Source: a virus. Taken from it: a stretch of DNA of 64,000 nucleotides. The position numbers and the translations under genes were made by a program. The stretch's first letter is position 1; each line of letters begins with the position of its first letter. Shown piece by piece: positions 9,690-64,000 of the stretch. The DNA is taken from IMG/VR virus record IMGVR_UViG_3300005613_002762, positions 85,191 through 149,190 of that record, one strand, 5' to 3'. The notes below the pieces were generated by a model that worked only from the letters and a program-made list of their open reading frames with translations, ran no database searches and was not told the origin of the DNA.

Positions 9690-10142
9690 ATGAGAAATTT
9701 AGATTCAATTATTAGAAGAGTTATTAAAGAAACTCACGAAGAAAAATCTTCACGATATATGTTCTTTTCAAATTTAGAACAAATGAGAAGACAATGTGAC
9801 TTACTTTTAGATTTAGATAGAGATATGGTTGAGGAAATACTAGAACATGGACACGATTGGGCTCAAGACCATATTAGTGAAGCAAAAAATAATATGGATC
9901 AAGTTTTTGATTTTTTAATGAATGAAACCAATTCCGATTCTGATATGGAAATGGAAGACAATATCATGATGGAAGGTAGAAAAAAAACAGGAACAAAACT
10001 TTGTGCGAGAGGAAAAGCCGCCGCTAAAGCCAAATATGACGTATACCCCTCGGCATATGCTAATGGTTACGCTGTTCAAGTCTGTAAAGGAAAAAAACCT
10101 GGTTTAGACGGAAAAAGAAGGTGTTCAGGGGTTTATTGCTAA
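9690..10142 (+). CDS. Leader-bearing protein with basic Cys module (PSAYANG)
   Basis: N-terminal 'LDSIIRRVIKE'; C-terminal 'LCARGKAAAKAKYDVYPSAYANGYAVQVCKG'. Confidence 0.6.
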   Translation: MRNLDSIIRRVIKETHEEKSSRYMFFSNLEQMRRQCDLLLDLDRDMVEEILEHGHDWAQDHISEAKNNMDQVFDFLMNETNSDSDMEMEDNIMMEGRKKTGTKLCARGKAAAKAKYDVYPSAYANGYAVQVCKGKKPGLDGKRRCSGVYC

Positions 10143-10215
10143 ATTTTTTTTTAAAAAATTTTTTTTATTCACTTTATATCATATATTTGTAGAACAAAAT
10201 AAAAACTACAAATAC

Positions 10216-10644
10216 ATGAAAAAATTTTTCAAACGAATTTATAAGAGATTTAAAGTTAAAATGGCTCGAAGAATGCGAAATAACATGGTCACACATGAAG
10301 AAGTTGAGTTACATGAAAAAACCGCATTTAAAATTTGTGTTAAAGTTATATCACACCCTTCTTCAGATTTTATGATTGCGCCACTATCGGATAAAAGATA
10401 TGTGATTAACGAAGATCTTAATCTTTTTATTATTATAAATTGGAATAAAGTTGAGATTACAAATCACATATTTCATTATGATGTTGTTTTATCAAAAAGG
10501 GATCACGAAAGAGTTATATATTTATACGATACGGAAACAGAAAAAAGAAGAACAAATACTGAGGCCAATGTAAAAGCAAATATTAAAAATTCTTTAGATA
10601 CTCTATTATCCAAGATAAATCAGAATATGGAAAATAATAAATAA
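10216..10644 (+). CDS. Hypothetical protein (host-type promoter)
   Basis: 142 aa; TATATTTG at 10182-10189. Confidence 0.6.
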   Translation: MKKFFKRIYKRFKVKMARRMRNNMVTHEEVELHEKTAFKICVKVISHPSSDFMIAPLSDKRYVINEDLNLFIIINWNKVEITNHIFHYDVVLSKRDHERVIYLYDTETEKRRTNTEANVKANIKNSLDTLLSKINQNMENNK

Positions 10645-11322
10645 TTATTTTTTTCTTGGTTTATAACTTGTCATTACAGGTTTTTGACCTTTACCCCTTT
10701 GTGGATCTTTCTTTTCGGCAGTCCTTTTTTGTTGACAAGCCGATCTTTTTTGAGAATCCGACATTTTACTAGCAACGCCAGCAGCCCTACATTTTGGATA
10801 AGCACCTTTAGAAGTGTCGGATCTTCCACATGGGGGGTGTTTTCCGTCGACTTTTCTACAAATGTTAACCCAAGGACCTTTTGGTTGAGAAGATCCCTTA
10901 GGTTTCTTCTTTTTACCAAACCAAACTGCCAAGTCTTCATTTAGAATACCTTTATCACTTACCTCAACCCACTCATTAAATGGAACTTTTTGTAAAAATG
11001 GCGGAGTTTTTTTATACTTTATAGATCGATTAATATTTTTACCATCATTTTGGTGATGTTTGATGTAATCTTGTGCTTTGGCTGCTGTTCTTTCTAATTT
11101 AACAATTTGATTGTGTCTTAAACTTAAGTCATTATCGTAACTGTCATATTGAACTAAGGGACTTTTATAATCTGATACAGGTTGGTTAAAAGGTTCTAAA
11201 GAAGATTTTTCAAAGGGACGAAGACCAGGTTGTATTGGTGGTATATAACCCCCCCTACTACCACTAGCATCACTAGTTGCTTCTTTAATAACTCTTTTAA
11301 TTATCTTATTAAGTCTATCCAT
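10645..11322 (-). CDS. Leader-bearing protein with basic Cys module (WVNIC..PCGR..YPKCR)
   Basis: N-terminal 'LNKIIKRVIKE'; C-terminal module resembling DUF5872-type viral proteins. Confidence 0.6.
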   Translation of the reverse strand: MDRLNKIIKRVIKEATSDASGSRGGYIPPIQPGLRPFEKSSLEPFNQPVSDYKSPLVQYDSYDNDLSLRHNQIVKLERTAAKAQDYIKHHQNDGKNINRSIKYKKTPPFLQKVPFNEWVEVSDKGILNEDLAVWFGKKKKPKGSSQPKGPWVNICRKVDGKHPPCGRSDTSKGAYPKCRAAGVASKMSDSQKRSACQQKRTAEKKDPQRGKGQKPVMTSYKPRKK

Positions 11323-11357
11323 TTGATTATATATAATAAATATCTTATATTTTAAAT

Positions 11358-11567
11358 ATGGAACAAGAAAATGAAAAATATGGTAATCTATTTGGATCTA
11401 TAGATTTATTAAGTGAGGATCACCTTGAGATTATACTATCGACAATGGATTCTGAAACTGCATTATATTACATAATTGAATCGGTAAAATCTGCACATAG
11501 AAAAGGTGCTTATTCGATTGGTGAAACTGAAGTCATATCAAAGGCGATTAGGGTTTTAATTAAATAA
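11358..11567 (+). CDS. Hypothetical protein
   Basis: 69-aa ORF followed by a terminator. Confidence 0.55.
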   Translation: MEQENEKYGNLFGSIDLLSEDHLEIILSTMDSETALYYIIESVKSAHRKGAYSIGETEVISKAIRVLIK

Positions 11568-11593
11568 AAAAAGGGACAATTTCTTGTCCCTTT
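11566..11593. terminator. Bidirectional intrinsic terminator
   Basis: aaaaaaagggacaa-tttc-ttgtcccttt hairpin between convergent genes, downstream of the capsid gene. Confidence 0.7.
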
Positions 11594-62251: not shown

Positions 62252-62280
62252 ACAAATTAAATTTATTATATATAAATATA

Positions 62281-62460
62281 TTACAATCTGGAAGCCGCTT
62301 CCATTATCATTCTTAATTTGTTCTCAAGTTGTTTTATTTCATTAAGTTGATTCGAATTTAAATGTAAAGATTCACCTTTAATAGAGGAAATTTTGTTTTG
62401 TGTTTTTGTATATTCAAACATCAATTGATTATACTGCTGTGCCTTTTGTTCGTTTGTCAT
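62281..62460 (-). CDS. Small coiled-coil protein (59 aa; not in ORF track)
   Basis: MTNEQKAQQYNQLMFEYTKTQNKISSIKGESL...EAASRL. Confidence 0.55.
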   Translation of the reverse strand: MTNEQKAQQYNQLMFEYTKTQNKISSIKGESLHLNSNQLNEIKQLENKLRMIMEAASRL

Positions 62461-62554
62461 AACTAATATATAGTTGATAAATAGATAAAGAAAACAAAAA
62501 ACCCCACTCTTATTAGAAATGGGGTTTTAATAAATTGTTTTTTTATATGAAAAA

Positions 62555-63127
62555 TTAATTGTCGTATAATGGAGTTGTATTTTTATATGGTAACTCATAT
62601 TTAGGAAAATAAGCAATACACCTTCTTTTCAACATCAATTTACTAGCATCATCTAATTTAAAATTATGGTTTGCGGTTTTTAATCCATCAACACTTTTTC
62701 TTTTACCCCAACCTCTTCCACTACCACCACCAGGTAGTTCAGTTAAGCTATCCAATTTTTCGCAGTCAACATAATAACTCCAACCTTTTGGGTCTTTTAT
62801 GCTATTTTCGTAATTATTAAGTTTGGCATCTGAAACATAAATAATGAATTCACCATCGTTCGTTGCGTCTTTAATACTTATTTGTGTAATTGTTTCATTC
62901 CCTAATTTAAAATCTCTATATGCTTGAGATAACATCTTTGGATAAGTTTTATTTTTTTTTGTAGTTTCATCATATGTTGATATATCAACACCATTAATTT
63001 TTACAGTTTTTGTTGCCTCACCACCACCGCCGGCAGCAATAGGTTCTGATGCATCACCTTGTTCCATAATAACTCGTTTAACAATACGGGTTAAATCTCT
63101 TTCGGTTAGTTTTATAATTCTTTTCAT
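62555..63127 (-). CDS. Leader-bearing hypothetical protein
   Basis: MKRIIKLTERDLTRIVKRVIMEQGDASEPIAAGGGG. Confidence 0.7.
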   Translation of the reverse strand: MKRIIKLTERDLTRIVKRVIMEQGDASEPIAAGGGGEATKTVKINGVDISTYDETTKKNKTYPKMLSQAYRDFKLGNETITQISIKDATNDGEFIIYVSDAKLNNYENSIKDPKGWSYYVDCEKLDSLTELPGGGSGRGWGKRKSVDGLKTANHNFKLDDASKLMLKRRCIAYFPKYELPYKNTTPLYDN

Positions 63128-63940
63128 AAATAATTTTGTTTATAGATAAATATATAATTAAAGTAAAAAAAAAAACTCAACGTTTTGAAATTTTATTTGA
63201 GGTAATCAAACGTTGCATTTTTGATTTGTGTCTTCCTGTTTTAAAACTTCTTAGACCAAGGTGTTTTGTAGATCTATTTGTTACCCTTTCTCTCCACAAA
63301 CGCCAAGATTTATTTTTAAGATTGTTTCTCATAAGAATTATAACTTCTGATTCTGTAATACCGAACTGAAAAAAAATGGCTTCAAATGGTGTTCTGTCTT
63401 CCCAAGCCATTTCTATAATTCTGTCAATATCTTGTGTTGTCAATGAAGAAATATTTTTTTTAATTAACAAGGTGTTGTACTTATAGCACCACTACCATCT
63501 TTACAGGTATAGTATAATTTACCGTCTCTATAATATGGACCATCTGGAAGTGCTAACGCACAAAATGCGGACAACATTTTACCAACTTCATATTGATCAC
63601 CACCTCGACTCAATCGTCCTTTGTTAATCCAAAAGTTTTCATTTCCACTAGAAAAAGGTTTATTACCAACACCCCATGGAACCAAAACGGATTCTGATTT
63701 TGCACAATTATACTTATAATTAAGAGATCCTAAATATCTTCCACCATCATAAAGTTGTTTTGTAAACTGAATATTTTCCTCATCAACTTTTGTTGGTGCT
63801 GACGTTTTATATTTTTTCTGATATATTGGGGCGTTTTTAGCCAGTGTTAAATCGACACCATATCCACCAACTTTTGGTCTTTTTGGTTCTTCAGATCCAC
63901 CACCGCCGGCAGCAATAGGTTCTGATGCATCACCTTGTTC
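63021..63940. repeat. 44-bp identical direct repeat encoding the EQGDASEPIAAGGG linker
   Basis: ccaccaccgccggcagcaataggttctgatgcatcaccttgttc at 63021-63064 and 63897-63940. Confidence 0.95.
63177..63470 (-). CDS. TIGR03643/DUF2805 family protein
   Basis: 'DRIIEMAWEDRTPFEAI..QFG..ESEVI..MR...WRERV'. Confidence 0.85.
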   Translation of the reverse strand: MLIKKNISSLTTQDIDRIIEMAWEDRTPFEAIFFQFGITESEVIILMRNNLKNKSWRLWRERVTNRSTKHLGLRSFKTGRHKSKMQRLITSNKISKR

Positions 63941-64000
63941 GCAAATCAAAGGTTTTACATTACCAAGCGTCGACTCAAGTAGTTTTTTAAATTTTGAGGT
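63464..64000 (-). CDS. Leader-bearing protein, 5'-partial
   Basis: Frame is open to the window edge: ...TSKFKKLLESTLGNVKPLICEQGDASEPIAAGGGG... Confidence 0.65.
   Translation of the reverse strand, partial: TSKFKKLLESTLGNVKPLICEQGDASEPIAAGGGGSEEPKRPKVGGYGVDLTLAKNAPIYQKKYKTSAPTKVDEENIQFTKQLYDGGRYLGSLNYKYNCAKSESVLVPWGVGNKPFSSGNENFWINKGRLSRGGDQYEVGKMLSAFCALALPDGPYYRDGKLYYTCKDGSGAISTTPC

Follow-up and report, generated by a model that had tools for sequence, protein, structure and literature searches.

The window analysed here, a stretch of 64,000 nucleotides (nt), is the right-hand 64 kb of a 149-kb contig from IMG/VR (record IMGVR_UViG_3300005613_002762; 30% G+C), whose complete genome we place at ~290 kb because CheckV puts the completeness of the contig at 51%. 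On the minus strand of the window lies a T4-type head module, comprising the terminase, the portal, the protease, a protein in the scaffold position and the capsid protein. Spread over the rest of the window are genes whose products have unrelated bodies but start with one of a few short leader peptides. These leaders, which are probably propeptides that direct their cargo into the prohead, are the subject of this report.

An earlier note on this window, made from the letters alone, had listed about 20 such open reading frames (ORFs). All of the ORFs that it cited are present and start as described, with the leaders at the exact N-terminus. Profiles built from gene N-termini of four clade genomes define seven related classes of leader, namely A, B, C, D, E, F and a short form, S; they match 17 genes in the window, and three weaker or truncated cases together with one C-terminal copy bring the total to ~21, close to the number first reported (Table 1). 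Class A is represented by six full copies, each starting at the first Met, which a hidden Markov model (HMM) made from these six leaders recovered in a six-frame search with E-values of 5e-14 to 2e-10; no comparable class A match beyond these six was found in the six-frame translation of the whole 149-kb contig. The class A consensus spans 22 residues, MKRIIRLTESDLxRIVRRVIxE, and is followed by Q, E, D or G, at which point conservation stops. The short forms (genes 9690, 10645, 43126 and 51415) retain only the second half of this leader (xxLxxIIRRVIKE). The previous grouping of the genes stands for the six full and four short class A leaders, as it does for 26245 (true start, the ATG at 26754) and 46113 in class B, with 48448 as a weak case that the profile misses. 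Genes 61042 and 49146, however, had been assigned to class A and belong to class F, a leader of 15-16 residues with the consensus MKIIITESQYxxLxE. The truncated gene at 63464-64000 adds a further class, E (..FKKLLESTLGNVKPLICE), to those described before.

Table 1. Leader-bearing genes and head genes of the window (positions are those of the window; a slash marks the leader end or a predicted cleavage position; aa, amino acids)
Feature	Position	Strand	Details
Class A gene, 172 aa	39654..40172	-	leader residues 1-22, nt 40107-40172, end VIME/G; TATTTAT 21 nt upstream
Class A gene, 177 aa from ATG 52056	52056..52589	+	leader nt 52056-52118, end VLTE/E; orthologues in G001 and G002
Class A gene, 197 aa	57634..58227	-	leader nt 58162-58227, end LVKE/T; MSMSDD acidic repeat, Gly-rich hydrophobic tail
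Class A gene, 250 aa	58273..59025	-	leader nt 58960-59025, end IISE/D; body with OmpA/MotB-like peptidoglycan-binding fold
Class A gene, 119 aa from ATG 60601	60242..60601	-	leader nt 60542-60601, end VINE/D
Class A gene, 190 aa	62555..63127	-	leader nt 63062-63127, end VIME/QGDASEPIAAGGGG
Class E gene, cut by contig end	63464..64000	-	..FKKLLESTLGNVKPLICE/QGDASEPIAAGGGG
Short-form gene, 150 aa	9690..10142	+	MRNLDSIIRRVIKE/THEE; conserved beside capsid gene; Cys-rich basic C-terminal module (phrog_27331)
Short-form gene, 225 aa	10645..11322	-	MDRLNKIIKRVIKE/ATSD; basic body, pI 10; phrog_23735
Short-form gene, 569 aa	43126..44835	-	MEISKIVRKVLLE/Q
Short-form gene, 195 aa	51415..52002	-	MRILENVVRRVLLE/S
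Class F gene, 192 aa	61042..61620	-	MKIIISESQYNLLHE/S
Class F gene, 204 aa	49146..49760	+	MDLILTESQFIKLLKEE
Class B gene, 169 aa	26245..26754	-	MNKFIISESEKQRILEMHQNATSRQYLME/D
Class B gene, 399 aa, 3 predicted membrane segments	46113..47312	-	..SILQKHGVDSLIFE/D
Weak class B-like N-terminus, 197 aa	48448..49041	-	not recovered by profile
Class C gene, 164 aa	29927..30421	-	MNKSFSKIRHIQEANLVLE..LLME/Q
Class C gene, 185 aa, membrane segments	61694..62251	-	profile match; orthologues P0203, P0204 and P0207 bear class A
Class D gene, 422 aa	44842..46110	-	MKKELLEEIRRIKF..TLIE/Q
M23 peptidase, 222 aa, without signal peptide	35159..35827	-	C-terminal class D-like helix (NEDVVRIKEIMKKVL) after SVNE; N-terminus MNRNTSKKIISE/G
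Large terminase	20299-22074	-	part of T4-type head module
Portal protein, gp20-like	17672..19465	-	homology search
Prohead protease, T4 gp21 family, 242 aa, presumed processing enzyme	15425..16153	-	phrog_207 1e-43; PDB 5jbl 2e-14; PF03420 7e-24
Putative scaffold/core protein, 501 aa	13567..15072	-	between protease and capsid gene, the position of T4 gp22
Major capsid protein, gp23-like, 638 aa	11617..13533	-	homology and alignment; predicted maturation site LINE60/ATSD

The leader signal is strongly confined to protein N-termini. As the earlier note had proposed, we scanned leader HMMs over the genome and its relatives; in the four clade genomes the profiles gave 182 matches in N-terminal segments of 45 residues and 8 in a body of internal sequence 4.7-fold larger. 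An all-against-all comparison of proteins with unrelated bodies gave the same picture, with 1300 similar pairs of N-terminal 30-mers as compared with 25 for residues 41-70, and the Sec signal peptides formed a cluster of their own, providing an internal positive control. The leaders themselves do not resemble Sec, Tat or lipoprotein signals: they are charged throughout, and a hydrophobic N-terminal window is found in 2% of leader proteins as compared with 8% of the others. Leader genes number 17 of 165 in this contig (G000), 46 of 332 in G001, 50 of 385 in G002 and 33 of 375 in G003, or 9-14% of the genes in each genome, so that the scale, which had already been put well above that of T4, is even larger than was supposed.

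Conservation acts on the peptide. Among 30 class A copies, identical residues are encoded by the same codon in 0.58 of comparisons, where 0.49 is expected from codon usage, and both codon families of Ser (TCN and AGY) and of Arg (AGA and CGN) are in use. Because synonymous codons are nearly random while the residues are conserved, we conclude that selection is on the leader peptide and not on the DNA or RNA. The peptide is also widespread: at E<=1e-3 the class A profile recovers 7082 clusters (50% identity) among 1.84 billion proteins, with the match at the N-terminus in 148 of the best 150 clusters. When 596 Gb of prokaryote genomes were searched with a degenerate pattern for the leader DNA, only 4 matches appeared, of which two lie on contigs of Bacteroidota metagenome-assembled genomes; IMG/VR viral contigs contain at least 119 matching stretches. 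The protease of this window recurs at 70-91% identity in 12 of 16 large leader-bearing contigs. A 274-kb leader contig without head genes was considered as a counter-example and set aside, as it stops only 1 kb beyond its ClpB-like gene, which in the window is the neighbour of the head module. The leader profile is absent from Flavobacterium phage immuto, Microcystis phage Mel-JY01, RM378 and LR756511 and gives weak matches only in LR756508; the 26-residue leader has no tblastn match among cultured phages, and a text search of a library of papers with the leader strings returned no published description.

Two observations on the distribution of leader copies are recorded here. Leader proteins in the public databases (P0001-P0025, P0037 and P0046) often bear the leader two or three times, with each copy after the first lying inside the protein; some of these internal copies follow Met-Lys-Lys, like fused neighbouring genes, and others lack the Met and are true internal repeats. 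In G002, at least nine dispersed paralogues of ~149 aa (L083-L097; for example 239222-239671, 242222-242671 and 78977-79426) are scattered over this 296-kb relative, all starting MKIIITE(N/S)QYKLIKENISLKEKL.

Every leader class ends in an aliphatic-x-Glu sequence ([ILV]-x-E), as the earlier note had claimed, and does so exactly where conservation stops and where recombination joins leader to cargo. Since [ILV]-x-E is frequent throughout the proteome, the weight of this observation rests on the position of the site at the boundary and not on its presence. The same site can be located in the capsid protein. Residues 6-41 of T4 gp23 align with residues 22-54 of the capsid protein, and gp23 residue 93 aligns with residue 73; T4 gp23 loses 65 residues on maturation, judging from the deposited mature 456-aa and full-length 521-aa chains. 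Between residues 54 and 73 of the capsid protein, LINE60 is the only [ILV]-x-E. This site does not vary among 23 relatives, whereas the stretch behind it, which starts ATSD, is variable. We therefore predict from the alignment that LINE60/ATSD is the maturation site of the capsid protein. The leader of gene 10645 ends VIKE/ATSD and matches this predicted site.

Comparison of orthologues shows that the leader classes are interchangeable and are exchanged at the Glu. The cargo of 58273 is found in its orthologues behind a leader of class A, one resembling class C (P0177) or one of class E (P0167, P0169-P0171 and P0175). For 61694, whose own leader is of class C, the orthologues P0203, P0204 and P0207 have class A in its place, and the bodies of P0207 and P0205 are nearly identical from residues just past the Glu. 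Within the window, the neighbouring genes 62555 (class A) and 63464 (class E) have their leaders joined to a block that is identical over ~46 aligned nt and starts at the Glu codon. This block, at 63021-63064 and 63897-63940, encodes EQGDASEPIAAGGGG and is flanked by two different leaders and two diverged bodies; it looks like the product of recent recombination exactly at the leader/cargo junction. The module is also independent of position: the earlier note had seen a class D-like helix at the C-terminus of the M23 gene, and we find it there (NEDVVRIKEIMKKVL), behind SVNE. The same protein has a 12-residue N-terminus, MNRNTSKKIISE/G, that ends I-S-E, and the M23 peptidase may be processed at both ends.

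The bodies behind the leaders are diverse. Forty-five class A and short-form proteins from the four genomes fall into 38 body clusters, although the capsid proteins of these genomes are 77-84% identical to that of the window. A pI above 8.5 is found for 42% of the cargo bodies and 18% of other proteins (p 1e-9), and cargo length ranges up to 1018 aa. Pfam and PHROGs searches with 20 leader proteins of the window returned nothing useful except two PHROGs of unknown function, and Pfam returned three stray families for 117 database leader proteins; a type IX secretion C-terminal domain that had been suspected by eye in P0102 was unsupported by Pfam. Structure prediction was more informative. The AlphaFold2 model of the 58273 body, built with 31 homologues, has a confident alpha/beta core that Foldseek matches to OmpA/MotB peptidoglycan-binding domains (E 6e-5, probability 1.0), which bears out the label 'OmpA-like' previously attached to this protein. 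In the model residues 9-21 of the leader stand apart from the core as a helix, and residues 22-49 form a low-confidence linker behind it, an arrangement in which the leader cleavage site would be accessible. A PG_binding_1 domain is present in another cargo, a class A protein of 593 aa from a relative. None of the OmpA-like, PG_binding_1 and M23 cargoes has a secretion signal.

The leader genes also share an upstream motif. TATTTAT occurs 144 times in the contig, 63 times within 60 nt before gene starts. The 60 nt upstream contain it in 90/146 leader genes, as compared with 296/1111 of the other genes (odds ratio 4.4, p 2e-16), in line with the association first described. It also lies upstream of the protease, portal, terminase and scaffold genes. 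The Bacteroidota-type promoter sequence TAnnTTTG, which had been said never to precede a leader gene, is indeed under-represented (8/146 leader genes as compared with 120/1111 others), but the exclusion is not strict; gene 60242 has both a TAACTTTG and a GTATTTAC upstream.

The head module supplies the components that a loading system of the T4 type would use. The gp21 homologue reported in the window is genuine by its PHROG, PDB and Pfam matches (Table 1): the Peptidase_S77 protein retains the catalytic His (LNHPE) and Ser (ISSRG) of T4 gp21. The putative scaffold protein has a conserved N-terminal helix ending LVKE/SLKE/Q, a variable and very acidic DDEDM repeat and a conserved C-terminal domain, and is the presumed docking partner of the leaders. 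Acidic, Met-rich low-complexity tracts were seen in two proteins of the window, the scaffold, with a (D/E)-Met repeat (MDDEDMT...), and the class A cargo 57634-58227, with a similar MSMSDD repeat.

Taken together, these results make it probable that the leaders are capsid-targeting propeptides of the T4 type that have expanded into at least seven interchangeable classes. By sequence, each leader combines a short amphipathic helix, capped at its N-terminus, with an aliphatic-x-Glu site behind it. This helix would dock its cargo onto the prohead core late in infection, and the basic face that it has in class A would find its obvious partner in the very acidic scaffold. The gp21-type protease would then cut after the Glu, as it would in the capsid protein and the scaffold, freeing the mature cargo inside the head, and the cargo would leave with the DNA at the next infection. 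On this scheme the cargo set would amount to ~40-50 genes per ~300-kb genome, mostly small, often basic and turning over rapidly between related phages, and would include cell-wall-binding and membrane-inserting modules for which no other route to the host envelope is visible. Every sequence-level prediction of the original capsid-loading proposal that we examined came out as expected; docking, cleavage, packaging and ejection are steps that we infer.

Several observations weigh against capsid loading. No similarity in sequence links the leaders to the capsid-targeting sequence of T4, and [ILV]-x-E, being common in this Glu- and Ile-rich proteome, is weak evidence when taken alone. To our knowledge, a share of 9-14% of the genes far exceeds the number of cargo species packaged by any characterised phage. 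About 10% of the cargo bodies have predicted membrane segments, which as far as we know are unusual for packaged proteins. The second, internal leader copy in many database proteins is not required by a simple N-terminal model, although core proteins of T4 are known to be processed at more than one site. TATTTAT may not be strictly a late promoter, as it is also found before some genes that probably do not encode virion proteins. Finally, the clade is uncultured, and its nearest cultured relatives (immuto, Mel-JY01 and RM378) lack the leader.

The leaders could instead be uncleaved N-terminal docking or oligomerisation helices for a hub other than the prohead (the ClpA/ClpB-like unfoldase encoded at 27359-29398, a replication or assembly factory, or each other), with the Glu acting as a helix cap. 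In favour of this, what is conserved in the leader is a well-formed amphipathic helix that includes a capping box; one of the genes found amid the leader genes encodes a ClpB-like AAA+ protein and belongs to the core set of the probable clade (PMC12619734); and tags on so large a share of the genes are easier to fit outside a capsid than inside it. Such a hub, however, leaves unexplained why an aliphatic-x-Glu closes each of seven dissimilar helices just where they have been joined to cargo by recombination, why the same site appears at the predicted capsid maturation point, why a C-terminal module stands behind a VNE site and why peptidoglycan-binding cargo has no export route. We regard it as unlikely, though it deserves to be kept in mind.

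It is improbable that the leaders bring phage proteins to the inside of the host membrane, where they might serve, for instance, to exclude superinfecting phages, to control lysis or to remodel the envelope. The class A helix does have a hydrophobic face and an Arg/Lys face, like membrane-binding helices, and some cargoes contain membrane segments. Most cargoes, however, are soluble and many are acidic, classes B, C, D and E are not basic amphipathic helices, and the OmpA-like and PG_binding_1 domains would face the wrong side of the membrane. The idea fails because the non-basic classes substitute for class A on the same cargo.

We give very little credence to a recognition tag for a modifying enzyme, as in ribosomally synthesised and post-translationally modified peptides (RiPPs). 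The attraction is a general one, in that a single conserved tag recurs on many small proteins that are otherwise unrelated, but the radical-SAM family (PF04055) is absent from this contig and from five complete or near-complete relatives (G000, G001, G002, G003, G009 and G015) in a search in which the control genomes all matched, no modifying enzyme stands consistently beside the leader arrays, and the longest cargoes are far from small (up to 1018 aa). It is scarcely credible that the leaders are non-functional remnants of duplicated 5' gene ends (promoter plus first codons) or products of A/U-rich start selection, which the 30% G+C of the genome, the A/U-rich MK(K/I)II starts and the tandem arrays of leader genes might suggest, given that synonymous sites are near random while residues are conserved, the 22-residue consensus holds across 7082 clusters and the leader is exchanged as a unit.

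Returning to leaders as capsid-targeting propeptides, we put forward a broader proposal, tentatively and with less than even confidence: that in an abundant clade of aquatic Bacteroidota jumbo phages a swappable, multi-class peptide address code loads 40-50 proteins into each prohead, and that these, once clipped, are injected as a fast-evolving 'effector-ome' acting in the host envelope and cytoplasm. On this proposal, the class of a leader might determine where it docks, how many copies of its cargo are loaded or when that cargo leaves the head. If this is true, there would be thousands of cargo families worldwide, and the loading of cargo into capsids would be a major general route of phage-host warfare and not a T-even curiosity. 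If the leaders are capsid-targeting propeptides, about one-tenth of the genes of widespread environmental jumbo phages, nearly all of unknown function, would have a common explanation, and thousands of orphan families would become a searchable catalogue of candidate injected effectors with anti-defence, envelope-penetration or DNA-condensing roles. The system would show how a repertoire evolves by leader/cargo swapping at a protease site and would offer natural packaging tags for engineering in a non-enterobacterial setting. The leader profiles provide a simple metagenome marker for such cargo.

The other contents of the window bear on the identity of the phage. The nearest cultured capsid proteins, those of Flavobacterium phage immuto, Microcystis phage Mel-JY01 and Rhodothermus phage RM378, are 37-45% identical to that of the window, and IMG/VR holds hundreds of contigs with a capsid protein 75-86% identical, among them complete genomes of 272-321 kb. 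The minus-strand gene at 53984-56440 encodes an 818-aa protein of the host-like gliding-adhesin type, with a Sec-type signal peptide, SprB repeats, PKD-like domains and a CHU_C type IX secretion sorting domain; a Bacteroidota host is indicated because of the SprB repeats and the CHU_C domain. Between the head module and the leader genes, the plus-strand gene at 27359-29398 has a TATTTAT upstream and encodes a two-ring ClpA/ClpB-like AAA+ ATPase (AAA, AAA_lid_9, AAA_2 and ClpB_D2-small domains), an 80% identical copy of which is found at the end of contig G010. Amid the leader genes are an IMP dehydrogenase/GMP reductase-family gene (50427-51395, plus strand) and an M20/M42 peptidase-like gene (31082-32113, plus strand). 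A 259-aa protein with a Pro-Thr repeat of ~70 residues is encoded between terminase and portal (19514-20293, minus strand), and six tRNA genes (Met, Glu, Asp, Phe, Arg-TCT and Ser-TGA) lie in two groups among small genes at 37641-42310 on the minus strand.

The 'moraphages' are aquatic jumbo phages of Bacteroidota with genomes of <=307 kbp (PMC12619734). The phage of this window is like them in genome size, habitat and predicted host phylum, and the moraphage core genes, namely the prohead core protease, a ClpA-like ATPase, PhoH, homologues of gp13, gp25 and gp6 and a putative peptidase, match those seen here. Judged by size, habitat, host and core gene list, the phage probably belongs to this group. 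The words 'N-terminal' and 'leader' are absent from the paper describing the group (PMC12619734).

The closest known system is that of the T-even phages, whose internal proteins are diverse cargo sharing only a capsid-targeting sequence (CTS), which guides them into the scaffolding core and which gp21 cuts off (PMC3012670, PMC9026906). The capsid-loading idea is thus not new in principle, because the T-even internal proteins have already been described in these terms; the CTS is carried by IPI, IPII and IPIII of T4, and the internal-protein genes are polymorphic among T-even phages (Mullaney and Black 1996, reviewed in PMC9026906 and PMC3012670). Both systems have a short N-terminal propeptide (10-19 residues in T4) on unrelated, often basic and poorly conserved proteins, and in both the propeptide ends in a site of the (L/I)-x-E type that the gp21 prohead protease cuts in T4. 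The window phage further resembles T4 in encoding a protease homologous to gp21 and a gp23-like capsid protein that has a propeptide, and in both systems the cargo set varies between related phages. The C-terminal module of the M23 peptidase recalls T4 Alt, which also has a C-terminal propeptide (PMC9026906). The two differ in that none of the seven consensus leaders resembles MKTYQEFIAE by inspection, so that the analogy is one of function. The leaders of the window phage are 11 to ~30 residues long and fall into at least seven classes that replace each other on the same cargo, and 40-50 genes per genome are tagged as compared with three to a handful in T4. The peptidoglycan-binding and membrane cargo, the internal and C-terminal copies and the Bacteroidota host are further differences, and the system described here is known from sequence alone.

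The jumbo phages phiKZ, 201phi2-1 and SPN3US offer a second parallel: they have many head proteins (~50), several of which are cut after Glu by a gp21-related protease, and they package a large mass of ejected proteins (PMC5694885, PMC7411985, PMC10052503). As far as we know, the cleavage motif in these phages is (S/A/G)-x-E and no sequence is common to the propeptides of their different head and ejection proteins, whereas here one conserved tag is reused on unrelated proteins. Encapsulin cargo-loading peptides are a third parallel, in which a short terminal peptide sends diverse cargo enzymes into a shell of the HK97 fold, but these peptides are usually C-terminal, bind the shell protein directly and stay on, and no scaffold, protease or DNA is involved. 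The kind of system is therefore a known one, namely a T4 CTS with processing by gp21, and what is distinctive here is the use of swappable leaders of many classes, the scale and the host group.

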